Shown: positions 10,178-33,703 of the stretch, in pieces
Layout: each line of letters opens with the position of its first letter
How positions within the stretch are numbered: position 1 is the first letter of the stretch
NCBI GenBank assembly: GCA_035995565.1
Contig: DASYKK010000017.1
Span: forward strand, 2,286-66,285
Reading direction: 5' to 3'
Length of the DNA: 64,000 bases
Origin: Candidatus Angelobacter sp.
GTDB lineage: Bacteria > Acidobacteriota > Terriglobia > Terriglobales > Acidobacteriaceae
Program-made: the position numbers and the translations under genes
The notes under the pieces: model-generated
Seen by the model: only the letters and a program-made list of their open reading frames with translations
Told to the model about the DNA's origin: nothing
Databases searched by the model: none

Positions 10178-11620
10178 ATGCAAAGTGTTTGGGTCGTTTT
10201 TTTCATACTTCTGGCTGCCCTTTCTTCCGCTGCTCAACTTCCTGGCTCAGCACCGGCCCCCGGGCCGGACCGCCAGACTCCTGCAGTGACCTCCGCGGTA
10301 CCGCAATCGCTTGACTCATTCAGTGGCAGCGGTAAGGTGGACAAGCTGGTTCCGGGAGTAATTCCGCTATCCCTGCTGGACGCAATCGATCGCGGGCTGA
10401 AACACAACCTGGGCTTACTTCTTTCCCAGCAGCAGACTGAACTGGCCAGAGCGCAATATCGCCGCCAGTTGAGTGCGCTGCTGCCAAATATTTCCGGCAA
10501 CGTCAATGAGTCATTGAACCAGATCAACCTGGCGGCTTTCGGCATTCCGCTGCCCGCAGGATTGAAGTCGCCGGTGGTGGGGCCGTTCGGGATTTTCGAC
10601 GCTCATGCCAACATGAGTGAGACATTGCTCGACTTCAACGCTCTCAACAAAGTCCGCGCGGCCTCTGAAAATGAGAGAGCGGCAAAGTTTACGGTTCAGG
10701 ATGCGCGCGAACTGGTGGTACTGCTGGTCGGCAACCAATACCTGTTGACGGTGGCCAGCGCCACTCGACTGGATACGACCAAAGCCCAGCTCAACACTGC
10801 GCAGACCATCTTCCAGCAGACGCAGGACCTGAAAAAAGCCGGCGTGGCTGCGGGCATTGATGTTTTGCGTTCGCAAGTCCAGATGCAGACGCTACAGCAG
10901 CGCGTGCTGGCCGCGCAGAACCAGTTTGAACAGCAAAAAATGTTGCTGGCACGGACCATTGGAATACCGGTGGCGCAACAGATTCAACTGACTGACACCG
11001 TCCCTTACGCTCCGCTTACGGCTTTGAACCTGGAAGAAGCGTTGGCCCACGCGTACCAGGTACGACCGGAATTTCGGGCGGCGGAATCGCGTGTGCGTTC
11101 GGCTGAACTTTCCGTGAAGGCCGCCAGGGGCGAAGCGCTGCCAACCGTGGAATTGAACGGACAGACTGGCTTCATTGGGCCCGCTCCCGGAACCGCTGAG
11201 AACACATATGCAATTTCCGCCGGCGTGCGCATACCGATCTTTCAAGGCGGCAAGGTAAAAGCGGACGTCGATCAGGCAGCAACCTTGTTGCGGCAGGAAA
11301 GGCTGCAACTGGAAAACCTGCGCAGCCGGGTGGAATATGAAATCCGTTCCGCGCTGCTGGACGTGAAGACCTCTGATGATCAGGTGGCCGTGGCCAATCA
11401 GCAGATCGGTCTTGCGGCTGAACAATTGAAGGAAGCGCAGGACCGCTACAAAGCCGGCGTGTCCGGAAGCCTTGAAGTGGTGCAGGCGCAGGAAGCTGTT
11501 GCCGGCGCGAATGAGAACCACATTCAGGCCCTGTATCAGAACAATGTAGCCAAGCTGACGCTGGTGCGCGCCCTGGGCGAGGCGGAGCAGCGGACGCGAG
11601 CATTCCTGGGAGGAAAATAA
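10178..11620 (+). CDS. TolC-family outer-membrane efflux protein
   Basis: Signal peptide MQSVWVVFFILLAALSSAAQ. Two OEP repeats with typical LSLLDAIDRGLKHNLGL and ...YQVRPEFRAAESR... segments. It is immediately followed by HlyD and MFS genes. Confidence 0.9.
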   Translation: MQSVWVVFFILLAALSSAAQLPGSAPAPGPDRQTPAVTSAVPQSLDSFSGSGKVDKLVPGVIPLSLLDAIDRGLKHNLGLLLSQQQTELARAQYRRQLSALLPNISGNVNESLNQINLAAFGIPLPAGLKSPVVGPFGIFDAHANMSETLLDFNALNKVRAASENERAAKFTVQDARELVVLLVGNQYLLTVASATRLDTTKAQLNTAQTIFQQTQDLKKAGVAAGIDVLRSQVQMQTLQQRVLAAQNQFEQQKMLLARTIGIPVAQQIQLTDTVPYAPLTALNLEEALAHAYQVRPEFRAAESRVRSAELSVKAARGEALPTVELNGQTGFIGPAPGTAENTYAISAGVRIPIFQGGKVKADVDQAATLLRQERLQLENLRSRVEYEIRSALLDVKTSDDQVAVANQQIGLAAEQLKEAQDRYKAGVSGSLEVVQAQEAVAGANENHIQALYQNNVAKLTLVRALGEAEQRTRAFLGGK

Positions 11621-17535: not shown

Positions 17536-18084
17536 ATGGAAGCACATTGCCCTACTGCGCAAGCATCCGAGTGGTTCGCCGTGCAGGTGAATGGTGGGCG
17601 TGAACACTTGAGTGCCACTCACCTCAGGGTACGCGGCTATGATATTTTTCTGCCATGCTACCCGGAACGCCGTCGCTGGACGGACCGCGTCAAGATCGTA
17701 GATCGTGCCCTTTTTCACGGATACATCTTCGCGCGCGCGATCCCTAATGCAGGGCAAATTGTGAGGGCTCCAGGGGTGATCCGGATCGTTGGGAATCGTA
17801 GCGGACCTGTATACATTCCTCTACGGGACATTGAAGCAATTCAACGTATTATTGACGCGGGGGCTCGGGTCGAGCCGTGCCCGCTACCACAGCCTGGTGA
17901 ACGTGTGTGCATCGAAGAAGGGCCTCTGCGTGGAATCGAGGGTACCGTGGTGGCCTCAAAAGGCGGGCACCGTCTGATTGTCAGCATATCGTTGCTGCAA
18001 CGTGCAGTAGCAGCCGAGATTGATTCGAACTGGCGCATTATACCCAGCTCCTTTTCCCGCACTTATCGGCAAGATTCTAACTAA
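17536..18084 (+). CDS. NusG-paralogue transcription antiterminator (LoaP/TaA/RfaH/UpxY-like): NGN + KOW
   Basis: NGN-like WFAVQVNGGREHLSATHLRVRGYDIFLPCY...LFHGYIFAR...GVIRIVG. KOW-like GERVCIEEGPLRGIEGTVVASKGGHRLIVSISLL. It is not in a secE-nusG-rplK context and is the first gene of the co-directional biosynthetic array. Confidence 0.8.
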   Translation: MEAHCPTAQASEWFAVQVNGGREHLSATHLRVRGYDIFLPCYPERRRWTDRVKIVDRALFHGYIFARAIPNAGQIVRAPGVIRIVGNRSGPVYIPLRDIEAIQRIIDAGARVEPCPLPQPGERVCIEEGPLRGIEGTVVASKGGHRLIVSISLLQRAVAAEIDSNWRIIPSSFSRTYRQDSN

Positions 18085-18308
18085 GCGAGGGCTGCGCCGA
18101 TTCGCTCACCCGGGGCATCTTGCAACCCTTTCCTCAAGACCAACGGCTCGCACTCACGCGGACCATCCTTCTGGATTGCTTGTGTCGGGCTGTCGTAGAA
18201 GCTTTAGATCAAATATAGTCTCCGCAGTGGGACTGAAAGCGGCCTAAATATGCCGCTAACGAGAACAAAGTTCCCGTTACAACGCGCATAACGGGTTAGA
18301 TAGCGTCA

Positions 18309-19115
18309 ATGCCCCACAGTGACCCAGATTTATCCCGACCGGTAGCTGTCCTAAAGGTGTCTCCGTGGCTCATTCGCTCGCCAACTTGCGGAGTCCCGAA
18401 GCTTCGGCTAGCTGCATTTCCTCACGCGGGTGGTGGAGCATCAGGCTTTCGTCGCTTATTTCGCTACCTCCCTGCCGAAGTTGAAGTGATTGGGATTCAG
18501 CTTCCAGGACGCGAAAATCGAGTTCGAGATCCCGCGAGTGGGAGTTTATTCGACTTGCTGCGCGATATTGTTGACAACCTTGCTCCGGCGCTCCAGGACG
18601 ACGTTCCGTTCGTCTTTTTTGGCCATAGTCTGGGCGCTCTTATTGCGTTCGAAGTAACACGGCTGTTCCGTGCGAACCGATTGTGCGGGCCCGCTGCTCT
18701 TATTGTCTCCGGACGCACGCCGCCTCACGTACCCCTGGTCCGCCCCGCCTTGCATGGACTCGCCGACAACGATCTGCTGCGCGAAGTTATCCGGCTCGAT
18801 GGTACACCTCGGGAACTGCAGAGCCACCCCGAAATGCTCAAGCTGATTCTGCCCGTCCTTCGGGCGGACTTAAGACTAGACGAAACCTACGCTTATTCGC
18901 AGGGGCCGCCGCTTGACTGCCCAGTTCTCGCCTGCGGCGGGCAAGACGATTCGGAAGCTCCATTGTCAACAATGCGGGAGTGGGAGATCCACACTTGTGC
19001 AAAATTTGTCCTCAAAACATTCGCAGGCGGGCACTTTTTTATGCATTCGAACTCGGCTCTGTTTAATACAGAACTGGCGTCGTTCTTGCGTAGCGTGACG
19101 CAGGTGATGGTGTGA
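18309..19115 (+). CDS. type II thioesterase (alpha/beta hydrolase, NRPS/PKS editing)
   Basis: LRLAAFPHAGGGASGFRRL, IGIQLPGRENR, nucleophile elbow FFGHSLGALIAFE, and C-terminal GGHFF. Confidence 0.85.
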   Translation: MPHSDPDLSRPVAVLKVSPWLIRSPTCGVPKLRLAAFPHAGGGASGFRRLFRYLPAEVEVIGIQLPGRENRVRDPASGSLFDLLRDIVDNLAPALQDDVPFVFFGHSLGALIAFEVTRLFRANRLCGPAALIVSGRTPPHVPLVRPALHGLADNDLLREVIRLDGTPRELQSHPEMLKLILPVLRADLRLDETYAYSQGPPLDCPVLACGGQDDSEAPLSTMREWEIHTCAKFVLKTFAGGHFFMHSNSALFNTELASFLRSVTQVMV

Positions 19116-19210
19116 CGTCGCGTACTTTGGAATTAGATATCCGGCCAGAACAGGACACGGTGCCCGGCCGATCCGGAACAGACAAGACTTCGTAGGCAGG
19201 TCTCCTAGAT

Positions 19211-21619
19211 ATGTTTTCAATTTTCTACGAGTGGCTGGAAGGGCTGGCGAGGGATTTGAGGTACGGCGCTCGAAACCTGCGTCGAAAGCCTGGGGTCCTG
19301 GTGGTTAGCGCTCTTTCGCTGGGGCTCGGAATCGGCGTGAATACAATTCTCTACATGGGTATCTCCAATATTTACGGACACAAACCAACGATGCACGATC
19401 CAAAGCGTGTCATGGGCGTCGAACTTGGAAACGGGAACCAGTTCTCGTATCCAGATTACCAGGATCTGTTGCGGAGCGGTATCTTCAGCGGCGCGTTGGG
19501 ATTCAGAACAACAACGCTCAATCTCGGTCCCAAAGGGGAAGTGACGCGTGTTGGCGCCACAGTCGTAACGGGGAACTACTTCGAGGTACTTGGCATTTCC
19601 GCGGCAGTCGGACGGATGTTCTCTGGCATTGATGCTCAACCAGAAACCGAACCCCGCGTTGTGGTGGTAACATCCGGGTTTTGGCGCGCCTACCTGAGGG
19701 GCGATTACGCCGCCATAGGTGAGCCAATCGTCCTGAACGGGGAGAGGTTTACCGTGGTCGGTATTCTGCCTGACAACTACCAGGCAGTCACGGGTTGGCG
19801 GGATCGCGGGGTATACGTTCCGCTGAGTAAGTTGATTTTGCCTAGCATCGACCAGCGTGACACGCCGAGTCTCACCGTGTTGGCCCGCTTGCAGCCGAAT
19901 ACATCGGCCGGGCAAGCAGCAAAGGCCGTTACCTCACTGAACGAGTGGCTCCAAAGCAAATATCCAGCCCGGCTGTCGAGCAGAGGACGACCGGCATCCA
20001 TATTCCCCGCGGAAGACCTTCAGTTCCGCGGCGCGCCAGCACAGTTGCTGTTGATGAAGATTGCCTGGGGCACAGCCATTTCCTTGCTTCTCATTTCGTG
20101 CGGCAATGTCGCTGGATTGCTGTTGGCCCGGGGATCAGATCGTCAATACGAGATGGCCATTCGCGGCGCCCTCGGTGCGGGACGTATGCGTGTTGCGCAG
20201 GCGATGCTCGCTGAAAGCTTTTTGCTTGTCATGACTGGAGCAGGAGTGGGTCTTCCATTGGCGTCATTGCTCAATCGAATTCCGATGCCCGCACCCATGA
20301 CGTATGTCCAGGACGCAATGGCGCTCGACAGCCGGGTACTGCCCTATTCTGGGCTACTCATTGGCTTTGCGACGCTCGTCTGCGGTGTGTTCCCAGCTAT
20401 CAGGACAATGCGCATAGACCTGATCGCCGTATTGAATCAGGGCGGCAGATTGTTCACTGCACCACGCGCGTGGTTGCGAGAGCTACTCGTTGCCGGGCAG
20501 GTCGCAATGACATTCATTCTTATAGTAGCGGCACTCTTGTGCGTAAGAAGTCAGATGCTGATTGCGCACGCGGACTTGGGGTTCGACATTGACCACGGAG
20601 TCGTCGCCCAGTTTGGACTTCAGCGCAACCAGTATGAAGGGCAGGATCGAGTTCGGTTAGCCGACCGTCTCACGAAGCGCATTGAGCAGATTCCCAGCGT
20701 AGTATCAGTGAGCGTAGCAGATATCGTGCCGCTGAGTGGCAACGCACTGATCAAGAGCTTCCACCCCGCCGGACGAACTGATATCGCGGGCACCCGCCCG
20801 GACACGTTCAGCGTAGGTCCGGGGTATTTCCGTACCCTGGGTATTCCGTTACTAAGAGGACGTGAGTTCAATGCTTTTGATCAACTTGGTGTCCCCTCTG
20901 TGGTGATTGTCAACGAGACCTTCGCCAGAACGTACTTCTCACGGACGAACATTATCGAAGAGATCGTTCAAACGGCGGGCGAGCGTGATTCCCGCGTGAT
21001 CGGGATCGTGCGGGATCATCGCATCGGCACAATTGGCGAGTCGCCGCGGTCGGTCCTTTACTATTCGTTTGCTCAGCGGCCGACTGAACTGAATCTTCAC
21101 GTGCGCAGTGCTGTGCCGCCGGATGCCCTTGTGGCCGGGGTACAACAGGCCATTCGGGAGATCGACGGAACAATCCCTGTTACGGTGCGGACCCTACACA
21201 ACGCGACAACGCTTGAACTAACCATGCGGCGCAGCGGCATGGTTCTGATGGGCGCATTGGGCGCGGTGGGACTGATATTAGCGGCCGTTGGCCTTTACGG
21301 TGTATTGGCTTATGTCGCTGCATCCCGTACCGGGGATGTCGCGATTCGCATGGCGCTCGGCGCCTCACGCGACCGCATTCGCTGGGAAATGCTGCGACGT
21401 GCTCTGATTGTAGTTTTGCCCAGCGTGGCACTTGGAGTGTGCTTGTCACTTTTAGTCATGCCTGCTTTCAGCACCTTCCTTGCCGGCGTGAACCCCTTGG
21501 ATCCCGTAGCTTTCGGTGGCGCGACGGCCATTTTTTTGCTAACTGGCGTTGCAGCTGGCTATGTTCCGGCGCAACGGAGTGCCCGCCAGGACCCCATGCA
21601 GGTATTCCGACGGCAGTAG
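19211..21619 (+). CDS. ADOP-family duplicated FtsX/MacB-like ABC permease (no adjacent ATPase)
   Basis: The N-terminus DLRYGARNLRRKPGVLVVSALSLGLGIGVNT is typical. There are two MacB-periplasmic-core plus FtsX halves, and the C-terminus ends YVPAQRSARQDPMQVFRRQ. The ~800-aa size fits the acidobacterial duplicated orphan permease family. Confidence 0.85.
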   Translation: MFSIFYEWLEGLARDLRYGARNLRRKPGVLVVSALSLGLGIGVNTILYMGISNIYGHKPTMHDPKRVMGVELGNGNQFSYPDYQDLLRSGIFSGALGFRTTTLNLGPKGEVTRVGATVVTGNYFEVLGISAAVGRMFSGIDAQPETEPRVVVVTSGFWRAYLRGDYAAIGEPIVLNGERFTVVGILPDNYQAVTGWRDRGVYVPLSKLILPSIDQRDTPSLTVLARLQPNTSAGQAAKAVTSLNEWLQSKYPARLSSRGRPASIFPAEDLQFRGAPAQLLLMKIAWGTAISLLLISCGNVAGLLLARGSDRQYEMAIRGALGAGRMRVAQAMLAESFLLVMTGAGVGLPLASLLNRIPMPAPMTYVQDAMALDSRVLPYSGLLIGFATLVCGVFPAIRTMRIDLIAVLNQGGRLFTAPRAWLRELLVAGQVAMTFILIVAALLCVRSQMLIAHADLGFDIDHGVVAQFGLQRNQYEGQDRVRLADRLTKRIEQIPSVVSVSVADIVPLSGNALIKSFHPAGRTDIAGTRPDTFSVGPGYFRTLGIPLLRGREFNAFDQLGVPSVVIVNETFARTYFSRTNIIEEIVQTAGERDSRVIGIVRDHRIGTIGESPRSVLYYSFAQRPTELNLHVRSAVPPDALVAGVQQAIREIDGTIPVTVRTLHNATTLELTMRRSGMVLMGALGAVGLILAAVGLYGVLAYVAASRTGDVAIRMALGASRDRIRWEMLRRALIVVLPSVALGVCLSLLVMPAFSTFLAGVNPLDPVAFGGATAIFLLTGVAAGYVPAQRSARQDPMQVFRRQ

Positions 21620-21656
21620 CCCGCAATCTTAATTGTTTTCTCGGAAAAGGACAGAA

Positions 21657-22190
21657 ATGCACAACATTCTTCGTTTCTTTGCCGGTCTCCTCTTCGTTGC
21701 CAGCTTAGCCGGGTGTGCAAATTACCCAAAGATTCCCGCAACAGGTGCCCCGGCACCGGATTTCCAGCTCATGAACCAAGCCGGCAAAACCGTAAGCTTA
21801 AAGGACTACGCTGGCAAATGGGTCGTACTCTACTTCTATCCCGGGGATTTCGGCAAACGGGGCACCGCAGCGGCGCGCAGTTATCGAGGAAATCTGCGCA
21901 AATTCGAGGAAGAGCAAACAGTCGTCATTGGGATCAGCCAAGATGATGTTTCAACCCATCAGGCTTTTGCCAAAGAGGAACAACTGCCGTTTACACTTCT
22001 TTCAGATGAGGGACAGAAGGTCGCGATGCAATACGGCTCTTTCCGGACGCGTCTGGTGCACACACTTGTGAGCTATCACACCTTTATTATTGATCCAAAA
22101 GGCAAGATCGCCCGTGTGTTTCTCGATCTCGACGCGATGGATCCGAGTGGCCAGATGCTCAGCGCTGTCAGTGCGCTGCAACAGCAGTGA
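21657..22190 (+). CDS. peroxiredoxin (BCP/AhpC-TSA)-fold lipoprotein lacking the peroxidatic cysteine
   Basis: Lipobox LAGC. APAPDFQLMNQAGKTVSLKDYAGKWVVLYFYPGDF...VIGISQDD...FTLLSDEGQKVAMQYG is a clear BCP-like scaffold. The expected DFTPGCT is DFGKRGT, with the Cys position occupied by Gly at 21861-21863. The only Cys in the protein is the lipobox Cys. Confidence 0.75.
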   Translation: MHNILRFFAGLLFVASLAGCANYPKIPATGAPAPDFQLMNQAGKTVSLKDYAGKWVVLYFYPGDFGKRGTAAARSYRGNLRKFEEEQTVVIGISQDDVSTHQAFAKEEQLPFTLLSDEGQKVAMQYGSFRTRLVHTLVSYHTFIIDPKGKIARVFLDLDAMDPSGQMLSAVSALQQQ

Positions 22191-22195
22191 CCCCA

Positions 22196-25100
22196 ATGAC
22201 ATCTCAGCAAATCCTTGACATCGCCATCGAGAGCGGAGTCTTTCTGTACGTTGAAGGCGGCGGTTTAAAGTATCGCGCTCCGGCCGGTAACATGTCCCCG
22301 GAGCTGCGACAACTACTGAAGCAGCATCGCCAGGAAATCATTCTGCACCTCAATAAGATGCAGGTGCAGGCGGTTGGTGATCGCTTCGAGCCCCCGCCGA
22401 TCCAGCGACGTATTGGTAGCGGTCGAGTTCCTCTGTCTTACGCGCAGCAACGGTTTTGGTTCATCGAGCAGTTGGAAAATTGCGGTATCCACATGCGAAG
22501 CGCTCACCGATTGACGGGATCGCTAAACGTCAGGGCTCTGGAAGATGCACTGAACACGATAGTCAATAGACACGAATCGTTGCGGACGGTATTCTTCGAG
22601 GAGAATGGCACGCCATACCAGTTTGTGGTTCCGACCGTCAAGTTCGGCTTGACACGGACGGACTTGTGCAGCCTAAGCGAAAGTGAACAGGAGTCTGAAA
22701 TCCGGCGCCACATAGCAGAGGATGCGCAGCGTCCATTTGATCTGGCGCGCGATCTGATGATCCGGGTCCATCTGCTTGCCTTGTCCCCCGAGGTGCACGT
22801 TGTCATTCTCAACCAGCATCACATCGCCTCGGATGCCTGGTCGCAATGGGTTTTTAGAAGGGAGTTGGTGGAACTCTATCTGGCTTACTGCGAAGGACGC
22901 CCCAACTTAACAGTACCGCTAAAATTGCAATACGCAGACTACACTGTATGGCAACAAGCCTGGCTAAAGGGTGAGGTGCTCGAGCGACAACTCGCTTTCT
23001 GGAAGCGGGCGTTGAAGGGCATACCGGAGGTCCATAACCTGCCACTCGATCATGGGCGGACGACGGGCACGACTCATTCCGGTGGATCAGTAGTTTGCAC
23101 AATTGACGATGAGACGTTGCAAGGCATCCGGGACTTCTGCAATCGCAGAGATGCAACCCTGTTTATGTTCTTTCATACAGCCATGTCAATACTGCTGAGC
23201 CGATACAGCGACGATACCGACATCGTTGTAGGGACGCCGGTTCTGGGCCGCGTTCATCCGGATTTGGAAGCAATGATTGGCCTGTTCGTCAATACCGTCG
23301 TCTTACGACTGAGGCTGGACGGTGACCCGAGTTTCGAGGAGCTGCTGAAGCAAGAAAAGCAGCAACTGCTCGATGCGCTTAACCATCAGCATGTACCTTT
23401 CGAGTTAGTCGTGGAGACTATGAAGCCGCGACGCAGCACTAGTTACAACCCGATATTCCAAGTTCTTTTCAACATGCAACCATTGGACACTGACGGGTTC
23501 GCGCTTCCGGGCCTCAAATATGAAGCACTCGGCGTCGCAGGGATCGGCACATTCGACCTTTCGATTACGGTGATGGAGTCGGTTCATAGTTTGTCAATCC
23601 GCTTCAGCTACAGTAGCGCAGTTTTCCTGGGTGCCACTGTGACGCGCATGGCCAACAACTTCCGAGCTCTCCTATCCAGCATCCTAGACTCACCCAGCCG
23701 GCGGGTCCGTGAACTGGACATGCTTGCACCGATGGAGCGGAATCGTCTGGTGACCGAGCTAAACCAAGGGCGATCCACCCCGGTCTATATCGTCGATTCC
23801 ACTGGCAATCTTATGCCTGAAGGCGGCCACGGAGAGTTATGCGTACCTGCGACGGGTTTGGCTCAGTATTGCAATGACCAAGATCCACGGGACGTCCAAC
23901 GGCAAATGAGGTCCATTCCCAATCCGCTTGCGAGTGCCAGCGACGAGCCTTTGTGGCGAACAGGCGCGCTTGCCCGCTGGTCCCCGACGGGGGAACTGGA
24001 GTTATTCGGAGCGCTCGCTGATCGCACTACAGTTGGTGGCGTGCGCATCAATCTTGCCAGATTCCGAGGAGCCTTGTCGACGACTCCGTGGATAATCCGT
24101 TTCGCGGTGGTTGTGCGTGAGGATGTTTCCGGTTGCGAGATTCTGGTCGCCTACGTTGCCGGCGACAAGAAGGCACTGGCGCCGTTTGAGCACTTTGTGA
24201 CTGAATTACGCATCTCACTGGCCTCGGCTCTCGATGGCCAGGAGGTACGCTTCGCCCTCGCTGTGGTTGATCGACTCCCATTTTTTATCGAGGGGGGGCT
24301 GCAGCTTGATTTGCTCCCGATACCCGAAGACGCCATAAAGCCAAGTGAGCTTTTTGAAGGGGACGCACGAACCGACACGGAGTTGCGAATGGAGCGGATC
24401 TGGCGCACTGTGCTGCCGGACTCACCCCTAAGCAACGTCGACAACTTTTTTGCCGTCGGCGGTCATTCTCTGTCGATGATTGTTCTAATTAAGCGAATCT
24501 CAATGGAGTTTGGCGTCGACATCCCGCTCGCGACCTTTATGGAGGCGCCAACGATCAAAGCGACATCCCGATTCGTCTCTGGCGCACCTACCAGTGGCAA
24601 TGCTACAGATGTGCGTCGGCCGATGAACCAGGCACCGCTGGAGGTTACCGAGTCCGTTGCGACCCGGCAGAACTCGATCCCGCCGCTCAGTCTTGCTGAG
24701 CGCTCGAAGCCCCTGGCGCTGTCTTTTGTTCAGCGAGGACTCCTGTTAAGAATGTGGTCCGCGAAGTCCGAGAGTGGGCGAACCCGCTTTAATATGCCGG
24801 ACAGTCGGCAAATCGTTGGACCCCTTTGCATCGAATCCCTACGCCGAACGTTCGAGACTATCGTCGCCCGTCACGCTATTCTGCGCACTGTCTACAGAGA
24901 GGAGTCCGGCGAACCGGTGCAAGTCATTCTGGCGCCCACCCCTTTTTCTATCCCCTTCATCGATCTGAGTGGGCTAGCGCTGGACGTACAAACGGCTTCA
25001 GTGGGGAAACACGTGCGCGATCACGCTCTACGTCCGTTCGACCTGGCGAGTGAGCCAAGCCTGCGCGTGTTGCTGTTGAAGCTTTCGGATCAACGCCATG

Positions 25101-26089
25101 TGTGCCTCATTAATATTCACCACATCGCCACGGATGGATTTTCCTTCACTGTCTTCATACGAGAGGTTAATGTCATTTACACCGCATACATCAAGGGCAG
25201 GCCCCACTCCTTGCCGGAGCTACCCATTCAGTACTGCGACTATGCTGTTTGGCAACGCGAGTCATTTGCCCGCGGCCTGTTCAATGCAGATATGAAATTC
25301 TGGAGACAGCGCCTCAGCGATCTTGCCTCGGTGCCCGGTCTTCCCCTGGACAAGCCACGGCCACTCGTTGAAAGTCTTAATGGCGCTTATCACCGGACAA
25401 TCGTCAATGCTGAGTTAGTGCGGCGACTGAGTGAACTCAGCCGGTCGCAGAACGGCACTCTATTCATGATCCTGCATGCAATCTTCGCGTTGCTGTTGCA
25501 TGGATACAGTGGTGCAGACGACGTCATCATTGGCGCGCCGGTCGCTAACCGTCATCACCGCGACGTTGAATCTGTCATCGGTTGCTTCACTAACAACCTT
25601 GTTCTCCGGTCCGAGTTCAAGCAGAATCCCTCATTTGTCGACTTCTTGGCGCAAACCATCGACAACGTTCAGCAAGCATTCATTCATCAGAGTGTGCCAT
25701 TCGGTTTGTTGCTTGAGGCGGCCAAACAGCTTAACCCTGAACGAGATCTAAATCAGTTTCCTTTATGTCAGGCGATTTTTACCTTCCAGAACAGCGTAGA
25801 GCGCGAGGCAATCGACCTGCCTGATTTAAAAATTACGCCCCTCGATACCATGGAAATCCTGGACACGCATAACCCGTTCGTCCTGGTGGACTTGGTGCTA
25901 GACGCGGTGCAAACGAGCGGCGGTTTGTCACTCCAGTGGCAGTATGCGACCGACATCTTATCCAAAGGAACGGTTGAATTGCTCGCGGACAGATTCGACG
26001 CCCTGCTGGAAAGTGTTCTCCGTTGGCCAGAAGAACGGGTCAATACCTTGTACTTCACTGCCAGCAACGCTGCACAACAGCTCACATAA
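22196..26089 (+). CDS. NRPS: TubC-type N-terminal docking domain - C - decayed A remnant - T - C
   Basis: Docking-like ILDIAIESGVFLYVEGGGLKYRAPAGNMSPELRQLLKQHRQEIILHL. C1 has PLSYAQQRFWF and HHIASDAWS (22817-22843). The A remnant spans 23780-24325. T has FFAVGGHSL (Ser codon 24467). C2 has HHIATDGFS (25118-25144). The ORF is open from GTG 22187, overlapping the upstream stop. Confidence 0.9.
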   Translation: MTSQQILDIAIESGVFLYVEGGGLKYRAPAGNMSPELRQLLKQHRQEIILHLNKMQVQAVGDRFEPPPIQRRIGSGRVPLSYAQQRFWFIEQLENCGIHMRSAHRLTGSLNVRALEDALNTIVNRHESLRTVFFEENGTPYQFVVPTVKFGLTRTDLCSLSESEQESEIRRHIAEDAQRPFDLARDLMIRVHLLALSPEVHVVILNQHHIASDAWSQWVFRRELVELYLAYCEGRPNLTVPLKLQYADYTVWQQAWLKGEVLERQLAFWKRALKGIPEVHNLPLDHGRTTGTTHSGGSVVCTIDDETLQGIRDFCNRRDATLFMFFHTAMSILLSRYSDDTDIVVGTPVLGRVHPDLEAMIGLFVNTVVLRLRLDGDPSFEELLKQEKQQLLDALNHQHVPFELVVETMKPRRSTSYNPIFQVLFNMQPLDTDGFALPGLKYEALGVAGIGTFDLSITVMESVHSLSIRFSYSSAVFLGATVTRMANNFRALLSSILDSPSRRVRELDMLAPMERNRLVTELNQGRSTPVYIVDSTGNLMPEGGHGELCVPATGLAQYCNDQDPRDVQRQMRSIPNPLASASDEPLWRTGALARWSPTGELELFGALADRTTVGGVRINLARFRGALSTTPWIIRFAVVVREDVSGCEILVAYVAGDKKALAPFEHFVTELRISLASALDGQEVRFALAVVDRLPFFIEGGLQLDLLPIPEDAIKPSELFEGDARTDTELRMERIWRTVLPDSPLSNVDNFFAVGGHSLSMIVLIKRISMEFGVDIPLATFMEAPTIKATSRFVSGAPTSGNATDVRRPMNQAPLEVTESVATRQNSIPPLSLAERSKPLALSFVQRGLLLRMWSAKSESGRTRFNMPDSRQIVGPLCIESLRRTFETIVARHAILRTVYREESGEPVQVILAPTPFSIPFIDLSGLALDVQTASVGKHVRDHALRPFDLASEPSLRVLLLKLSDQRHVCLINIHHIATDGFSFTVFIREVNVIYTAYIKGRPHSLPELPIQYCDYAVWQRESFARGLFNADMKFWRQRLSDLASVPGLPLDKPRPLVESLNGAYHRTIVNAELVRRLSELSRSQNGTLFMILHAIFALLLHGYSGADDVIIGAPVANRHHRDVESVIGCFTNNLVLRSEFKQNPSFVDFLAQTIDNVQQAFIHQSVPFGLLLEAAKQLNPERDLNQFPLCQAIFTFQNSVEREAIDLPDLKITPLDTMEILDTHNPFVLVDLVLDAVQTSGGLSLQWQYATDILSKGTVELLADRFDALLESVLRWPEERVNTLYFTASNAAQQLT
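23780..24325 (+). other. decayed adenylation-domain remnant (C-terminal third only, core motifs degenerate)
   Basis: The C domain runs directly into PVYIVDSTGNLMPEGGHGELCVPATGLAQY (A6-like). Then come WRTGALARW (A7, Asp lost), GALADRTTVGGVRINLARFRGAL (A8 degenerate) and LPFFIEGGLQLDLL (A10, Lys lost). The A1-A5 motifs and binding pocket are absent. Confidence 0.7.
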
Positions 26090-26090
26090 A

Positions 26091-27110
26091 ATGAATGGAA
26101 ATGCAAGAGGGAACGCCGTGTATGGTTTTGAGGCAAATGCCGATTCGGGGCATGATGTGCTGTGGAGGGGGCTCCCACACTCGAATTTTTACAGGCAGAT
26201 GAAGCTTACAGGGTCGACCACACTAGAATTGACGGGCGAAACGGAGCTAGAACGTCGTGCCTGCCGCTTGGACGTGGATCGCCATGCTGCGTTGGGCGCG
26301 TTTATAAACGCTAGTGGGCTGCATTTCACTACAATTATGCTTGGCATCTACCATGTAGTGCTGCAGTGGTATCTCGGAGATGTTGAGAGTATCATCGGCT
26401 GCTGCTTGCTGGAAAACGGCACGCCTCAAGGCGCCGAGGGCGGAATCCCGATAGTCCGATTGCGTCCCAGCTATGTGTACGCCGAGGATGATGATCGCAT
26501 CGAGGATGTGTTGCGAGATATCGAAGAGCGGCGCGCCGGACACCCTGTCGAAGTCGATATAGACACTTGTTCGTCGTGGACTTCCAAACGCGCTCCCACC
26601 TTTTACTATGTGGGTATTGAGGGCAGGGGCTTGAGCCATTCCGATACTGTAAACATCGCGGCCAGCCACTTGCCATTCCGTGTGATCGTCGGAGCTGCAA
26701 CGGAGGTAAATGGAACGGAACTCAGTATATCCATACCGTCCGCCATATCTCATGCGATCCCAATGCAAGACTTCCACCGGCGGCACGATACTGCACTTTC
26801 CTCATTGCTCGCGGGGAATTGTTCGCTGGTTGGTGAACTCAAGGCGCAGTTAGGCGACGCTGCGGAGGTCCCGTATCATCAGATCGAAGAAATGCAACAG
26901 AGAGTGATTACCCTTTGGGCTACGGTGCTCGGCATCCCAAAGGAGAAGGTAGACGCAACCTCGAATTACTACGAGTTGGGGGGAACATCCCTCAATGCGT
27001 TTCGGCTTGTCAATCGCGTGCGTCTGGAGTTGAAGCGTGACCTGAGCATCTGGGACATCGTAGAGAATCCGACCGTGGAACAGTTGTCACTGGCCCTGCT
27101 CAGGGACTAA
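26091..27110 (+). CDS. stand-alone carrier protein (PCP) with ~260-aa N-terminal region of uncertain function
   Basis: ATG lies 1 nt after the upstream TAA. The C-terminal segment is RVITLWATVLGIPKEKVDATSNYYELGGTSLNAFRLVNRV (PCP, GGxS). The N-terminal part (…GLHFTTIMLGIYHVVLQWYLGDVESIIGCC…) weakly resembles the C-terminal half of a condensation domain and has no HHxxxDG. Confidence 0.7.
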   Translation: MNGNARGNAVYGFEANADSGHDVLWRGLPHSNFYRQMKLTGSTTLELTGETELERRACRLDVDRHAALGAFINASGLHFTTIMLGIYHVVLQWYLGDVESIIGCCLLENGTPQGAEGGIPIVRLRPSYVYAEDDDRIEDVLRDIEERRAGHPVEVDIDTCSSWTSKRAPTFYYVGIEGRGLSHSDTVNIAASHLPFRVIVGAATEVNGTELSISIPSAISHAIPMQDFHRRHDTALSSLLAGNCSLVGELKAQLGDAAEVPYHQIEEMQQRVITLWATVLGIPKEKVDATSNYYELGGTSLNAFRLVNRVRLELKRDLSIWDIVENPTVEQLSLALLRD

Positions 27111-27116
27111 GCCGGG

Positions 27117-29201
27117 GTGTGCGACGTGGCTGATTTACAAATACAAGAGACGTCCCGAAGCGAAGTTCTCACCGCTGATGCTTTATTCCGTCGGAATGTC
27201 GCTGTTCGAGGCGAAGCACTCGCAGTTCAAGATGCAGTACAGGCCTGCACTTACCGAGAGTTAAATTCCAGGGCTTGCGCACTGGCTCATGAATTGCGAA
27301 AACGGGGTGTGTGCGCTGGTGACCGGGTGGTTATCTACTCCGAAAGAGGAATGCACGTCGTGATCGCCGTTTTGGCGGTCATGAAAGCTCAGGGCGTTTT
27401 TGTGCCGGTAGGTCTTGATACCCCGGCAGCCCGCTTGGCGTTCATCCTGAGCGATGCCAATTCCAAGTTGCTCCTCGCCGACAGAGCCGGCCGCGAGAGA
27501 TTAGCAGGATGTGATCTACATTTCCAGGCTGTCGTTATCGATGAGGTTGCATCCCGCAGCCTGGACGATCACGCACCTGACGATTGCGGTTCCTTAGATA
27601 CGACGCAAGTTCAGCCGAATGACCTCGCGTATATCATCTACACGTCCGGAACAAGTGGCGAACCAAAGGGTGTCATGATCGAGCACGGCAGTCTCGCGCG
27701 GAGGTATCATGACTGGGACCAGCCGTTTCAGCTCAGTCGTTTACGGCCGCGAATACTGCAGATTGCCAAGTTCGGGTTCGACGTGTTCGTTGGCGATCTC
27801 GTGAAGGCGCTTTGTTCAGGCGGCGTGCTTGTGATCTGTCCAACCGAGGCTGTGGCTGATCCGGTTCAACTCTATCGATGGCTTGTCGATGGGGCAATCG
27901 ACTACGTCGATATTGTTCCTGCCGTTTTGCGACCTCTCGTCGATTACCTGGAGCTGTCGGGACAAAATCTGGCCTGTGTGGGAGTGATCAACTGTGGCGC
28001 TGACCTGTGGACGAAAGAGGAATATCAGAGAAGCTGGCGCGTTACGAAAGCGGTGCGATTATTCAACGGTTATGGAGTAACAGAATGCACCATCGAGAGC
28101 ACGCTGTTTGAGGATGACGGCATGCTGGAAGGCAAGAACAGGCTGCCTATCGGTCGGGCCCTCGACAGTGACCAGATACTCATTTTGAATGAAGACCGTG
28201 AACCTGTGGCCATCGGCACGACCGGTGAAATATGCATTGGGGGTACTTGTGTGGCGCGCGGCTATCTCAACCGGCCTGAGTTGAACCAGAAAGCTTTCTT
28301 TGTGCGAACGGATAGTCAAGGGCAGCACGTCAGGTTTTACCGAACGGGTGATCTGGGTCGAATTGATGCTAACGGCGTGTTGGAGTTCTTGGGCAGGATC
28401 GATTCGCAGGTAAAGATCAACGGCCAGCGAATCGAACTTGAGGAGATCGAGAGAGTGCTTGGGCGCCTGCCAAACGTGCGCCAGGCTGCAGTCTGTTTCG
28501 AGATGAACCAACGTACGTTGACGGCATTCATCAAGGCAACGCATGGAACTACGCTCAATGCTTCCGATGTAACCACGCAGCTGCGGCGTTATCTTCCCGC
28601 ACACATGATCCCGAGCGCGATTGTGTTCGTCCCGGACTTCCCGCTGAACCAGAATGGCAAGATCGACAGAGGCCGACTGGCAAACGATCGTGACCGCTAT
28701 ACAACGCATGCGCCGCCGAATAGGAATCACGAGCTGCATCAAATCCGCAGTGTGACAGAGTTTTACGAGCGCCTCAGCCTCGGGGGCATCGACCTTATCT
28801 CCGTTGTGAGCGAGTTTGTGAAACCGTCCACGAGTTTTGCCTTGATAGTGATCGGCGCGTTTGCCCATGGGACCGCAAGTGCAACTTCTCCCGTCGAGTT
28901 GTTGATCCTCCTGGATGACGCTCGTGCGATGAAGCGACGGAAAAAAGACCTGGCTGGCGCTTGCGTCGAGTACTCCATGGGGCCCGAAGATAGCTACCCG
29001 AGAATTTCTGTTAGTCTCGACGGGCTCAAAATTCTTCTAACTTTCCTAATTGGAAAACCTGACGACGAAAACTTTTCACGAAAAGAGATAGCGAATCTGG
29101 TGACGAGTGACTGGATCGTGCAAGGCCAAGATGCAGTTGAGTCCTGGGTTCGCTTTTACCGGAGGCAGCAAATTGATTCCGGTGACAGGACCGCACCATG
29201 A
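27117..29201 (+). CDS. stand-alone adenylation enzyme fused to a C-terminal degenerate nucleotidyltransferase-like domain
   Basis: A motifs: YRELNSRA, IYTSGTSGEPKGV (27639-27671), NGYGVTEC, GEICIGGTCVARGYLN, YRTGDLGR, GRIDSQVKINGQRIELEEIE, PLNQNGKIDR. It has no T domain. The tail at 28749-29198 is paralogous to the ORF at 32723-33703. Confidence 0.85.
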   Translation: MCDVADLQIQETSRSEVLTADALFRRNVAVRGEALAVQDAVQACTYRELNSRACALAHELRKRGVCAGDRVVIYSERGMHVVIAVLAVMKAQGVFVPVGLDTPAARLAFILSDANSKLLLADRAGRERLAGCDLHFQAVVIDEVASRSLDDHAPDDCGSLDTTQVQPNDLAYIIYTSGTSGEPKGVMIEHGSLARRYHDWDQPFQLSRLRPRILQIAKFGFDVFVGDLVKALCSGGVLVICPTEAVADPVQLYRWLVDGAIDYVDIVPAVLRPLVDYLELSGQNLACVGVINCGADLWTKEEYQRSWRVTKAVRLFNGYGVTECTIESTLFEDDGMLEGKNRLPIGRALDSDQILILNEDREPVAIGTTGEICIGGTCVARGYLNRPELNQKAFFVRTDSQGQHVRFYRTGDLGRIDANGVLEFLGRIDSQVKINGQRIELEEIERVLGRLPNVRQAAVCFEMNQRTLTAFIKATHGTTLNASDVTTQLRRYLPAHMIPSAIVFVPDFPLNQNGKIDRGRLANDRDRYTTHAPPNRNHELHQIRSVTEFYERLSLGGIDLISVVSEFVKPSTSFALIVIGAFAHGTASATSPVELLILLDDARAMKRRKKDLAGACVEYSMGPEDSYPRISVSLDGLKILLTFLIGKPDDENFSRKEIANLVTSDWIVQGQDAVESWVRFYRRQQIDSGDRTAP
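28749..29198 (+). other. NTase-like C-terminal domain with catalytic residues replaced
   Basis: IDLISVVSEFVKPSTSFALIVIGAFAHGTASATSPVELLILLDD aligns with IDLTSLVFEFIKPASEVGVLVTGSIATRIATEVSDLDVLILAPS of the free-standing paralogue. At the catalytic positions GS becomes GA, DLD becomes PVE, and VDL becomes ILL. Confidence 0.65.
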
Positions 29202-30106
29202 CGAGACTCGGCATCTGTCACATCAGTTTCACGCCAGGTGATCAGCCGATTTGGTACCGGGATCTGCCGGATATCGAGGAGCAGATTCGCCTCCTAAACA
29301 TTCCCGATGAGGAAGATCTCTGGGAGTGGGGCTACTGCCGTCGCTCTTCCGGAGAGTATACCGCTCACGTTGCGGGTGGGTTCGGAGACCTAATGACGTA
29401 CCTGAGCGCTGAGAAAATCGAAGTGGATGCCGTGCTGGCCTGCGGTCCCTTTCAGAACAGTGCGGAGTGCTTCAGCGACGAGCTCCGAGCCGGCGTCCTT
29501 CCAGGAATTTCGATTCATCCTGACAAGTTGCACACCGTGGATGATCGAGAATGTATCAATGTTGCCCACGCGCTGGCGGAGGCAAGAGATTTGATCTACT
29601 CGGGTCACAGATACGTGCTGATCCTGGCGGCGGAAAAGCTAGAGCAAGACCGCTGCCGGTTTCGAAAGTACTCCATGGTCAGCGACTTTTGCTTCGCGAT
29701 TATCGTTACTAGCGTGATTGCACGTTGCCCCTGGGAACTGCTACATGTGCATATTGGCGCTGATCTGGATCCGAGTGAAGACACTGGCAAGATCCTGATG
29801 CGGCAGCTCGAGAGGGATTGCGTGGCAACTGTCCTGGCCGTTCATGGTTTGAAACCGCCTGACATTTCCAAATTCTTCTACTTGAACCTCTTTACACCTA
29901 TCGCCGAGATGAAAGCGAAGCACACCGGCTTCGCGTCCTCGCAAATCTATACCGAAGTGACGAAAGCAATGGCGCATTGCAACGGCGCCGACCCATTTAT
30001 CAATTTGCACACATATTCCGCAACTGGCCGCCCCGGTGAGATCTATGTGCTGTGCGCCTCGGCGCGGGCGCATGCAGCAGTTTGCCTTGTGGCTCGCCTG
30101 CATTAG
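29198..30106 (+). CDS. thiolase-fold, KAS III (FabH)-like protein; probable acyltransferase (tentative)
   Basis: ATGA overlap with the upstream gene. By-eye alignment to FabH: HTVDDRECINVAHALAEARDLIYSGHRYVLILAAEKL versus [37 protein letters not shown]. The Cys is retained. MVSDFCFAIIV aligns with IFGDGAGAAVL, and AHCNGADP with RHGNTSAA. The FabH His position appears not to be conserved. Confidence 0.5.
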   Translation: MTRLGICHISFTPGDQPIWYRDLPDIEEQIRLLNIPDEEDLWEWGYCRRSSGEYTAHVAGGFGDLMTYLSAEKIEVDAVLACGPFQNSAECFSDELRAGVLPGISIHPDKLHTVDDRECINVAHALAEARDLIYSGHRYVLILAAEKLEQDRCRFRKYSMVSDFCFAIIVTSVIARCPWELLHVHIGADLDPSEDTGKILMRQLERDCVATVLAVHGLKPPDISKFFYLNLFTPIAEMKAKHTGFASSQIYTEVTKAMAHCNGADPFINLHTYSATGRPGEIYVLCASARAHAAVCLVARLH

Positions 30107-30110
30107 GACC

Positions 30111-31244
30111 ATGCTAATCGATGAGCTAAAAATTGCTTCGAAGCGGATGCCTGAACTGGTCAAGGCGCTCAGCACTCGGGACATGATGGACCTTGAGAAC
30201 AGTGGCAGCGAATCCGTTACCGGCTTGTTGCGCGCGCATGGTGCGCCTGAGTTCCTTGTTCCCCGGGACCTTGGAGGCGGTGGTGGTTCCTTGTTGGAGA
30301 TTACACAAATTATGCGCGTCGTTGGATCCAGGTGTCCGTCGCTGTCCATAATGATGACAATGCACCACCATACAGTGGCAGCGATCGCACGTGGAATGAG
30401 CTCACTCTCTGGTGGGGCAGCATGCCTGAAGCGTGTCGCACGGGAGAGAGCGCTGGTGGCATCTGCCTTTGCTGAGGGCCGTCCGGGAGCCGATACTTTG
30501 GACTCAACTGTGCGCTGTACCCAGCTGGACGGTGGGGCTGGTTTCAGGGTGGTTGGATCCAAAAAGCCAAGTTCAATGAGCCATCATGCAAATTTCGCGT
30601 GTGTCGGCGTGTTGGTGGACATTGGCGGGCAAACAGGTCGCGGAATCGCCCTCGTGGACCGAGCGCTCGACGGGACCAATGTCAGTGATTTTTGGACATC
30701 CGAGATACTGGCATCTGCGGATTGCCATTGTCTCAAGTTCGAGGGTGTTCTTGTGCCGCACGGCTTTGTCCTCGTGCCTTTCGCCGATGGAAAGGTTGCC
30801 TGCAGGGAGGGCCTTGTAGTTGCCCATGCTGAGATCGTGATGTCGTGCCTCTTTCAAGTGCTTATAAGCGCCAGCTACTTAGGAATGGCGACTCGGCTTT
30901 GTGAGTCCGTGTTGAAGAAGCGCGGCGGCACGTCGGCACAACGTGTTGAGATCCTGAGTCGGTTGGAATCCGCGGCCGCGGCCATTTATCACCTCGCCGC
31001 GTCTGTTGAGAAAAGCGATATTTCCGCATACCTCCTGGGCAAATCAATGCTTGTGGCATGCAACACTGCTGCACAGATCGAGTACGCAGTGGCGCTGAGC
31101 GTCAAGGCTCTGGGTGGTAGCGGTTACTTAAGCAGTAAAGAAGCTCAATATCTGGTCCTCGCAAGCCACTGTCTCGATTTCCACCCGCCATCACGCCAGG
31201 TACGGGAAGAGATTATAGATGGCTGCTATACAGAATTAATTTAA
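30111..31244 (+). CDS. acyl-CoA/acyl-carrier-protein dehydrogenase-like flavoprotein
   Basis: ATG lies 4 nt after the upstream TAG. GLLRAHGAPEFLVPRDLGGGGGSLLEITQIMRVVGSRCPS, GFRVVGSKKPSS and ...ALGGSGYLSSKEAQYLVLASHCLDFHPP follow the ACAD domain order. The ~377-aa size matches aminoacyl-PCP dehydrogenases. Confidence 0.7.
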   Translation: MLIDELKIASKRMPELVKALSTRDMMDLENSGSESVTGLLRAHGAPEFLVPRDLGGGGGSLLEITQIMRVVGSRCPSLSIMMTMHHHTVAAIARGMSSLSGGAACLKRVARERALVASAFAEGRPGADTLDSTVRCTQLDGGAGFRVVGSKKPSSMSHHANFACVGVLVDIGGQTGRGIALVDRALDGTNVSDFWTSEILASADCHCLKFEGVLVPHGFVLVPFADGKVACREGLVVAHAEIVMSCLFQVLISASYLGMATRLCESVLKKRGGTSAQRVEILSRLESAAAAIYHLAASVEKSDISAYLLGKSMLVACNTAAQIEYAVALSVKALGGSGYLSSKEAQYLVLASHCLDFHPPSRQVREEIIDGCYTELI

Positions 31245-32323: not shown

Positions 32324-32688
32324 ATGGCGAAGAGGGCGAGACTGCTGGAGACCGAACGCCACTGGTTGCGCGTGTTGGGCACGTTGAATGAAGGAAGCAG
32401 GCGTGTTTGTCGCCCATAAAGCGCTGGCAGAAGGACACGGAGCGGTCAGCCGTCTAGTCCGGCTCACGAGCATGCTGCGGCCCACCTTTTTTTAAAGGTA
32501 TGGAGGAGTTGGAGGCCGGTCGCTTGCCCTACCGGAAAGAGGACGACTTCGCTGCGTGGGCGGCGGATGGAAGGGAATCGAGGAAGCCGATCCCCCGTCA
32601 AGTGAAGCCTCACAAGTTTCACGGCGACTTGAACTACACCTTCCATCTGTGGGACTCGGCGGTGATTTCGGATATTGTAATTTTGTAA
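32324..32688 (+). pseudogene. relic of an ISAzo13-family (DDE) transposase: frameshifted N-terminal HTH part joined to the extreme C-terminus
   Basis: Three frames read consecutively: MAKRARLLETERHWLRVLGTLNEGSRR / GVFVAHKALAEGHGAVSRLVRLTSMLRPTFF / KGMEELEAGRLPYRK...PHKFHGDLNYTFHL. The first parts align with the LDERxRRLxAAAEAxAxGxGGISxVSRATGVSRxxIxxGxxEL N-terminus I recall for this family. The last part resembles the FHGEWNYTI C-terminal motif. The frames change near 32400 and at the T-run at ~32487-32493. Confidence 0.5.
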
Positions 32689-32722: not shown

Positions 32723-33703
32723 TTGATAGTGTCTAATATGGCTGAGAATCGCGTTGCTGCACAGTACGAATTACGTCCGCGGCTGAAGAAACGACCGCAC
32801 AAACTGCACCTTTGTTCTAGCGTCGAGGGACTAACGGCGGAGCTACGCGCCAATGATATCGACTTGACTTCCCTTGTATTCGAGTTCATCAAGCCGGCGT
32901 CCGAGGTTGGTGTTCTCGTCACCGGCTCCATTGCCACGCGCATCGCGACGGAGGTCTCAGATCTCGATGTCCTGATATTGGCGCCCTCTGCGGATGTCTT
33001 CAAAAGCCAGCGAAGGCGCGAAATTGCCGGAAGCATTCTCAATTATGTTTCTCAACCCGGGGGCGATAGGGAGCAGATCGGTCTTTTCCTTTCGGGCATT
33101 GAGGTCGATCTCGTTTTTGTGACCAATCCTGATGTCACACGATTTGTGGCATCGGCTGGGGTGTTGGATTATGGTGCCCGCAAGAAAGACAAGCACGCGA
33201 CCAACGATACGTTCACGAGCCGACTGGGCATGGGCTGGGTCATTCATGGTCAGAGCGTCGTGCAGCGCTGGAGGGAGTATTACGATAGTGAGGGTCTGCC
33301 AGCACGATGGATGTCAGAGCAATTCACCGAGGCGGCCAAGGATTTGGAGGATATGCATATCGGCATCGGACTCGCTAAGGGGCATGTGTCTGCAATAGGC
33401 GCTCGCGCCGTCAGTTGTCTTTTGCGTGCTTTACTCGCCTGTAACCGAATCTGTTCTACTTCTATCAGTTACATGAGGATAGTGAATCGGTTGATCAGCA
33501 CGGCCGATTCTGAGATGCGCGACGCCCTGATAACGGGAATGCGGTTAGCCTTCCCGCCTCTTTTCGAGACGGTGCAGGAAGAAAAGGCCTACTTTGAGGA
33601 CGTGTATGCCTATTGCGGCAAGGTCCGGACAATTCTGTCGCGAGATCCTGAAATGGTTGACATTCTTGCTTCAACCATCCATGACCTGGATCTGATACTG
33701 TGA
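32723..33703 (+). CDS. Pol-beta-superfamily nucleotidyltransferase with helical C-terminal domain (KNTase-like layout)
   Basis: hG[GS]-x10-DxD signature VLVTGSIATRIATEVSDLDVLIL (GS at 32924-32929, DLD at 32960-32968) plus a third Asp in GIEVDLVFV (33107-33109). The C-terminal ~150 aa are predicted helical. An alternative start is ATG 32738. Confidence 0.65.
   Translation: MIVSNMAENRVAAQYELRPRLKKRPHKLHLCSSVEGLTAELRANDIDLTSLVFEFIKPASEVGVLVTGSIATRIATEVSDLDVLILAPSADVFKSQRRREIAGSILNYVSQPGGDREQIGLFLSGIEVDLVFVTNPDVTRFVASAGVLDYGARKKDKHATNDTFTSRLGMGWVIHGQSVVQRWREYYDSEGLPARWMSEQFTEAAKDLEDMHIGIGLAKGHVSAIGARAVSCLLRALLACNRICSTSISYMRIVNRLISTADSEMRDALITGMRLAFPPLFETVQEEKAYFEDVYAYCGKVRTILSRDPEMVDILASTIHDLDLIL

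Follow-up and report, generated by a model that had tools for sequence, protein, structure and literature searches.

Here we describe a stand-alone adenylation (A) enzyme of the nonribosomal peptide synthetase (NRPS) type that ends in a degenerate nucleotidyltransferase (NTase) domain, encoded on the + strand at positions 27117–29201 of a 64,000-nucleotide stretch of DNA from Candidatus Angelobacter sp. (contig DASYKK010000017.1). We refer to this whole stretch as the window, and the genes, domains and sites that we locate in it from 22187 onwards are likewise on the + strand. The tail of the enzyme is a truncated counterpart of the N-terminal half of a free, motif-intact NTase encoded 3.5 kb downstream (32723–33703). 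Related clusters have an NTase of full length with intact motifs joined to the A domain, and in these no free copy is seen; we therefore regard the tail, which is very likely catalytically dead, as a truncated relic of such a fusion. The anatomy and the evolutionary story of these A-NTase proteins are, in our view, solid. As to the present role of the tail, our preferred explanation is that NTase function moved from an ancestral A-NTase fusion to a free duplicate, and that the fused copy was kept as a non-catalytic structural or docking module, a possible account that we place a little short of probable.

The product of 27117–29201 is a motif-complete stand-alone adenylation enzyme with ∼176 extra residues. 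Its 694 amino acids (aa) are encoded by a single uninterrupted open reading frame (ORF), and the same 694-aa gene is called in L001. Pfam matches AMP-binding (PF00501) to aa 24–384 (E 1.3e-69) and AMP-binding_C (PF13193) to aa 443–515 (E 1.5e-9), the protein scores 382.8 bits against the NCBIfam model for amino acid adenylation domains (TIGR01733; cutoff 317.4), and its nearest relatives in the PDB are NRPS A domains. With both Pfam matches, a TIGR01733 score above the cutoff and the A10 lysine, aa 24–518 (27186–28670) has the make-up of an NRPS adenylation domain. Its core motifs read as intact, the translation containing YTSGTSGEPKG, NGYGVTE, YRTGDL, GRIDSQVKINGQRIE and NGKIDR, the last being the A10 motif (aa 513–518) that includes the lysine. 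The specificity code, read by eye and unverified, is D-V-G-A-I-C-G-I-E-K, which appears to resemble ornithine codes and would point to a basic amino acid. As the first-pass annotation had stated, no carrier domain follows A10: Pfam finds no PP-binding match in the 694-aa protein, which in this respect is not a canonical adenylation-carrier (A-T) didomain or module. What follows is a linker (aa 519–544; 28671–28748), in which alignment places an H-E-L-H version of PHDLH, a motif conserved at the N-terminus of the NTase family, and then the tail itself (aa 545–694; 28749–29198).

The tail had been said to resemble, over ∼150 aa, the N-terminal half of the separate ORF at 32,723, and this likeness is statistically supported. 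BLASTP aligns aa 525–694 with residues 23–187 of the 326-aa free ORF over 166 columns at 27% identity (E 7e-20), and an hhalign comparison of two profiles, one made from 19 short tails and the other from 17 free or long-fused homologues, gives a probability of 100% and an E-value of 5.1e-47 over 151 columns; the sequence strings originally quoted for the two proteins are all present. The segment aa 525–694 has no match in Pfam, NCBIfam or PADLOC, with PF01909 failing to match even at E≤1. Sequence searches of the PDB with the tail, the free ORF, and two further proteins of the neighbourhood described below (the KASIII-like protein and the ∼250-aa domain of the X-T protein) returned nothing significant, and profile searches gave motif-level matches only, to minimal NTase and DrrA. 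A word-indexed homologue search with the 170-aa tail alone found no match, not even the tail itself, although the identical P0011 is in the collection; such a search can miss short or unusual queries, and homologues were gathered with the full-length query.

Structure prediction assigns the tail to the Pol-beta-type alpha/beta NTase core fold, in keeping with its homology to motif-intact relatives. The AlphaFold2 model, built from a 31-sequence alignment, has a mean predicted local distance difference test (pLDDT) score of 87.6 and a predicted template modelling (pTM) score of 0.82, with low pLDDT over roughly the first 10 residues. When the model was compared with the PDB using Foldseek, all 50 matches listed belonged to the NTase superfamily, with probabilities of ∼0.8–1.0 and modest scores (E 1e-3 to 2e-2, TMq ∼0.4); the top matches included LinB (3jyy), ANT(4′) (6un8, 6p06), poly(A) polymerases, Cid1 and African swine fever virus PolX, and others listed were poly(U) polymerases, TUT7 and SpoT. 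No unrelated fold was among the matches listed, and the top ones were all Pol-beta-type NTases, which upholds the view of the tail as an NTase-like domain.

The active-site residues of this fold are missing from the tail. Where an hG[GS] motif would stand the tail has G580-A581 (28854–28859), and in place of a [DE]h[DE] metal-binding pair it has P592-V593-E594 (28890–28898), the first metal-binding Asp having become Pro in both the site table and the BLASTP alignment. The counterpart of the free copy's E127-V-D129 is K638-I639-L640 (29028–29036), with Lys at the E127 position and Leu at the D129 position, so that the third acidic residue is gone. The GA, PVE and L reported earlier for these positions were therefore read correctly. 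In addition, the tail stops after the helix equivalent to free residues ∼177–187 and has no C-terminal helical domain of the kind found in kanamycin nucleotidyltransferase (KNTase). With the catalytic carboxylates and this entire domain absent, the earlier description of the tail as catalytically dead is very likely right. We also considered whether the tail might be an artefact of ORF calling or a frameshift and rejected this, the fusion being one ORF that is kept in at least 19 divergent homologues.

The free paralogue (32723–33703) is 326 aa long from a TTG start; in database gene calls it starts at an ATG (32738) and has 321 aa. It is KNTase/ANT(4′)-like in having an N-terminal NTase domain, a C-terminal helical bundle (aa ∼189–326; 33287–33700, from secondary structure and alignment) that the fused tail lacks, and an intact G-S, D-x-[DE] and third acidic residue. 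The active-site motif G68-S69 … S79-D80-L81-D82 (32924–32968) occupies invariant columns of the family alignment and is recorded in the site table as well. The signature first read from this protein holds for G68-S69 and D80-L81-D82 and needs correction at its third acidic residue, where the near-invariant residue of the family is E127, the E of ‘GIE’, and not D129. Pfam recognition is marginal (NTP_transf_2, PF01909: 21.8 bits, cutoff 21), PF01909 being matched at E≤0.01 by 9 of 31 family members, and neither NCBIfam nor PADLOC assigns the free ORF to a family. Its AlphaFold2 model (pLDDT 88.2) finds ANT(4′)/kanamycin nucleotidyltransferase as its best Foldseek match, with both domains covered (E 8e-6, TMt 0.53), followed by the NTase-like protein 3c18, ANT(4′)-IIb, HalB and DrrA. 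The family profile also matches the G-S…SDLD motif of DrrA (E 1e-3), and one family member matches SidM_N. A defence-system reading, suggested by the fold match to HalB of Hailong, was rejected because of the NRPS/polyketide synthase (PKS) context and the lack of a PADLOC match. Just upstream of the free NTase lies a 62-aa ORF (32500–32688) that contains PRQVKPHKFH and ends in …ISDIVIL*; these ends resemble the family's N- and C-terminal motifs PRLKKRPHKLH and …HDLDLIL*, with a BLASTP E-value of only 0.064. This small ORF may be an internally deleted relic of another NTase copy, and its identification as an MbtH-like protein was rejected after a test.

The homologues of the two proteins bear on the origin of the tail. 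Those of the free ORF are 298–327 aa long and 37–61% identical to it, all come from metagenomes, and all are unnamed or called ‘hypothetical’ (P0001, whose annotation assigns it to a ‘Candidatus Angelobacter sp.’ metagenome-assembled genome, is 100% identical). The A+tail homologues (P0011–P0037) form a distinct set of close relatives of 633–834 aa. When the latter were cut after A10 and aligned with the free family, three classes emerged. The free proteins keep G-S, S-D-L-D and the third acidic residue (E) in 10 of 10 cases. In a second class the A domain bears an extension of ∼317 aa that amounts to a whole NTase-like protein, helical domain included, and the motifs are kept in all seven members (P0024, P0026, P0027 and P0030–P0033); P0133, P0134 and P0141 are putative further members, judged by their length and by where they match and not by their N-terminal parts. 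The third class, consisting of the window protein and 18 others, has an extension of 133–194 aa that corresponds to the N-terminal NTase half only, and D-x-D is found in 0 of 19, with replacements that vary by lineage (PVE, ALE, DLN, SLD and others). Residues E566, F567, K569 and P570 (of ‘EFVKPS’), G580, K606 and W666 are kept across all three classes. One further protein, P0028 (549 aa), has 47 residues after A10, which still resemble the first helix of the tail.

In a neighbour-joining tree of the N-terminal NTase halves, which is rough and distance-based and may be distorted by long branches, the main short-tail group, with the window protein among its members, falls into a single clade, and the free family and the long-fused P0024/26/27 group are sisters. 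The short tails of P0035 and P0037 sit within the long-fused P0030–33 clade, a placement that indicates a second, independent truncation. The simplest reading of these sequences is an ancestral A-NTase fusion, followed in one lineage by a free duplicate, after which the fused copy was truncated and lost its catalytic residues. The family as a whole is rare, with 205 representative clusters at E≤1e-3 among 1.84 billion.

The distribution of the free gene agrees with this history. A survey of co-occurrence, proposed with the original observation, found a free NTase at six of the seven dead-tail loci that could be judged and at none of four full-fusion loci. The six are the window, L004, L007 (free gene at 10355–11254), the P0034 locus (free gene directly upstream) and, as deduced from contigs of the same length, P0012/P0003 and P0020/P0007; the seventh is L008, where P0037 has a very degenerate dead tail. 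The full-fusion loci without a visible free copy are L005, the P0033 locus, L006 and L019, as judged from flanks of up to 10 kb per side, with L006 and L019 meeting a contig end on one side and L019 covered for only 2.3 kb downstream. Pattern-based surveys of GTDB genomes and JGI metagenomes yielded little, and a degenerate, hand-made DNA pattern gained only L015 and L018, its other matches being due to chance; the co-occurrence statistics are therefore small. Fusion state and free-copy presence are nonetheless complementary, in a pattern that is consistent even though the numbers are small, and the tail is on this evidence the decayed remnant of an older A-NTase fusion.

Conservation can be compared across the five loci that contain both genes. 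Mean pairwise identity is highest in the A domain (61.7%) and lowest in the tail (43.7%); between them lie the N-terminal half of the free protein at 53.6% and its C-terminal half at 57.5%. The tail evolves faster than its active paralogue, as expected once catalysis is lost, and still lies far above what unconstrained sequence would show at such divergence. A frameshift or stop is found in none of the 19 short-tail homologues. We read this as relaxed but persistent purifying selection on the tail.

Around the A gene lies a conserved cassette whose order (a ∼250-aa domain of no known family joined to a carrier domain, the A enzyme with or without an NTase, a KASIII-like protein and an acyl-CoA dehydrogenase (ACAD)-fold protein) is found in the window, L004, L005, L006, L007 and L015; the cassette in L008 lacks the KASIII-like gene, and MacB-type exporters are usually nearby. 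In the window the first cassette gene, X-T (26118–27110), is recognised by the PP-binding match of its carrier (T) domain, and it is kept directly upstream of the A gene in L004, L005, L007, L008 and L019. Its ∼250-aa N-terminal domain has no Pfam or PDB sequence match. Eight residues of the same protein, DVESIIGC, match DVESVIGC in a condensation (C) domain of the neighbouring NRPS, and the ∼250-aa domain may be a degenerate lobe of a C domain. The 302-aa KASIII-like protein (29198–30106; weak ACP_syn_III_C match) is kept after the A gene in L004–L007 and L015, and is followed in the window by the 377-aa ACAD-fold protein (30111–31244), identified from domain matches and conserved context. 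Ahead of the cassette, Pfam and the translation show an NRPS (22187–26089) with the order TubC_N dock, C, degenerate A remnant, T and C; in the translation the remnant, A6–A8-like at aa ∼521–737, resembles over ∼200 aa only the A6–A10 part of an A domain, and this A-less module probably depends on the stand-alone A enzyme to load it in trans. Further upstream, at 17536–22190, lie the genes with which the cluster appears to begin, namely those for a NusG-like regulator, a type II thioesterase, a MacB/FtsX permease and an AhpC/TSA peroxiredoxin; a NusG-like gene likewise heads the distant locus L011.

More distant relatives of the NTase are partnered by a pyridoxal phosphate (PLP) enzyme instead of an A domain (L010 391–2685, L009 10001–12134, L011 6173–9622). 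P0148 is a fusion of Aminotran_1_2 and NTase, the NTase gene overlaps an Aminotran_1_2 gene in L009 and L011, and in L011 an ACAD gene follows the NTase and T, C and KASIII genes accompany it. Such partners suggest that the substrate of the active NTase may be derived from an amino acid. Other genes recur near members of the family: thymidylate-kinase-like genes in L009, L010 and L019; EPSP_synthase-like genes at the P0034 locus, L008 and L009; DHQ_synthase-like genes in L004 and L010; APH (kinase-like) genes in L005, the P0033 locus and L009; and alkaline-phosphatase-family genes in L005 and the P0033 locus. These neighbours hint at products linked to nucleotides or cyclitols, or at cryptic modification with phosphate or nucleotidyl groups.

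How, then, is the tail best explained? In the account that we prefer, both activities of the ancestral A-NTase fusion would have served a single series of pathway steps. In the lineage of the window NTase function would have passed to the free duplicate, and the fused copy would have decayed to a folded, non-catalytic module that is still held by a real, if relaxed, constraint, its likeliest role being structural or in docking. The tail could then couple the A enzyme physically to the free NTase or to other cassette proteins, with the free protein carrying out nucleotidyl transfer in this cluster and the A enzyme loading carriers in trans. The docking or structural role is what we infer from these comparisons. 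Pairing with the free paralogue, as first suggested, would fit the co-occurrence pattern, and its appeal is that KNTase-type enzymes form dimers and that the pseudo-NTase DZF domains heterodimerise. The recurrent fusion or adjacency of the family with amino-acid-handling enzymes, whether A domains or a PLP enzyme, argues for functional coupling. Our best guess is that the active NTase would nucleotidylate a hydroxyl or amine of an amino-acid-derived intermediate or product, the nucleotidyl group serving as a leaving group or as cryptic self-protection. A bolder version, which we think quite unlikely, would make A-NTase fusions an undescribed NRPS tailoring logic: the NTase would modify a carrier-tethered or freshly activated amino acid, for example to give an O-AMP leaving group used by the ACAD-fold enzyme or a cryptic protecting group removed after export, and the dead tail would be a platform that docks the free NTase on the A enzyme, an NTase-derived analogue of the glycopeptide X domain.

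Several points weigh against the docking or structural role. In ANT(4′)/KNTase-type enzymes two subunits share an active site, one contributing its N-domain and the other its C-domain; the tail has no C-domain, so it could form no canonical heterodimeric site and any complex would be scaffolding only. The counts on which co-occurrence rests are small and several loci lie on truncated contigs, no free NTase is seen in 14 kb at L008 despite its dead tail, and no other part of the cassette is as poorly conserved as the tail, which erodes in length from 194 to 133 aa and to only 47 aa in P0028. Much of this fits a serious rival, less probable in our judgement and on balance unlikely, in which the tail is a functionless vestige left after the move to the free copy, slowly being lost and tolerated since it is folded and harmless. 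Length falls along a continuum from 317 aa through 194–133 aa to the 47 aa of P0028, the last helix is gone from the tails of P0020, P0021 and P0029, and the second truncation, within the long-fused clade (P0035/37), is one for which L008 reveals no free copy. Set against simple decay are a mean identity of ∼44% and the non-catalytic residues that stay invariant, or nearly so, between loci sharing only ∼62% identity in their A domains, a divergence at which unconstrained sequence would no longer align, together with the confident tail model and the uninterrupted reading frames of all 19 short-tail homologues.

The tail might instead serve the A domain itself, independently of the free NTase, as a stabilising or chaperone-like module or as a selector for carriers (that of X-T or of the 22187–26089 module). 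Having no T domain, the enzyme must act in trans; all that the neighbouring NRPS module retains of an A domain is a degenerate remnant, the X-T gene lies directly ahead of the A gene in most loci, and the motifs common to all classes (EFVKPS, ALK-RRK) are non-catalytic; yet free NTases, which have no A domain attached, conserve these motifs just as well, nothing links the tail to T domains, and P0028, if functional, works with almost no tail, so that we consider such a role clearly unlikely. Retained catalysis by the tail, whether as an NTase that uses non-canonical residues or through some other activity, seems to us very improbable. E594 does remain at the position of the second carboxylate, and P0025 retains D-L-E, which has the D-x-E spacing of KNTase. 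But the first Asp has become Pro and the third acidic residue Lys, the whole C-terminal domain that supplies substrate-binding and base residues in KNTase-like enzymes is gone, and the substitutions vary by lineage, which speaks for lost constraint and not for a new active site.

If the coupling is real, these proteins represent a small, uncharacterised family that pairs or fuses a KNTase-like NTase with amino-acid-activating enzymes in NRPS/PKS clusters, and they offer both a testable case of a pseudoenzyme domain born by fusion, duplication and decay in an assembly line and a hint of nucleotidylation chemistry or self-protection in an unknown natural product. The clusters come from poorly studied soil bacteria, Candidatus Angelobacter being a genus of soil Acidobacteria. 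On a practical level, users of genome-mining tools should be aware that the tail and the free protein are invisible to Pfam, and such clusters are consequently mis-annotated as a plain stand-alone A domain and a hypothetical protein; members of the family are at present named only ‘hypothetical protein’ or by a generic adenylation-domain label.

Neither the NTase fold and its motif logic nor the concept of pairing or recruitment by a dead domain is new. For the fusion of an A domain with an NTase, literature searches found no description of the architecture, in agreement with the initial impression that an A-domain/pseudo-NTase protein was undescribed. The closest structural relatives are ANT(4′) and LinB: the free protein aligns with them over the NTase and helical-bundle domains (6p06, 1kny; E ∼1e-5, TMt 0.5) and shares G-S, D-x-D and a third acidic residue. 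For the tail, the match is to the N-domain (3jyy, 6un8). However, sequence identity is only 8–14%, this NTase family has an extra N-terminal extension (PHDLH…EFVKPS) and occurs within NRPS/PKS clusters, where it is either joined to A domains or PLP enzymes or encoded beside them, and the tail lacks the C-domain and the catalytic residues. A likeness to DrrA/SidM and GlnE-type adenylyltransferases is seen in the profile match to the DrrA motif (E 1e-3) and in a Foldseek match to 6yx5, but it is limited to a motif of ∼36 residues, and nothing indicates a protein substrate.

As a concept, the tail is reminiscent of the X domain of glycopeptide synthetases, a degenerate C domain that recruits P450s to the NRPS. 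In both cases a dead domain on an NRPS protein would be kept to recruit a trans-acting tailoring enzyme, although the fold and the partner are different, and we know of no recruitment platform formed by a dead domain derived from an NTase. Pseudo-NTases that heterodimerise are known in the DZF domains of NF45 and NF90 (PMC11952958). These too have the NTase fold, have lost catalytic residues and use the domain to pair with a homologous one; in contrast, they belong to eukaryotic RNA-binding complexes in which both partners are dead, whereas here one partner looks active and the pairing is hypothetical. For the free copy, the most useful comparison is with Mur29, an NTase encoded in a biosynthetic gene cluster that adenylylates muraymycins on a hydroxyl of the product or an intermediate and confers self-resistance (PMC12710036). 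Mur29 is not fused to an A domain and is likened here by function, not by sequence homology, and it provides a plausible model for the reaction that the active free copy may carry out.

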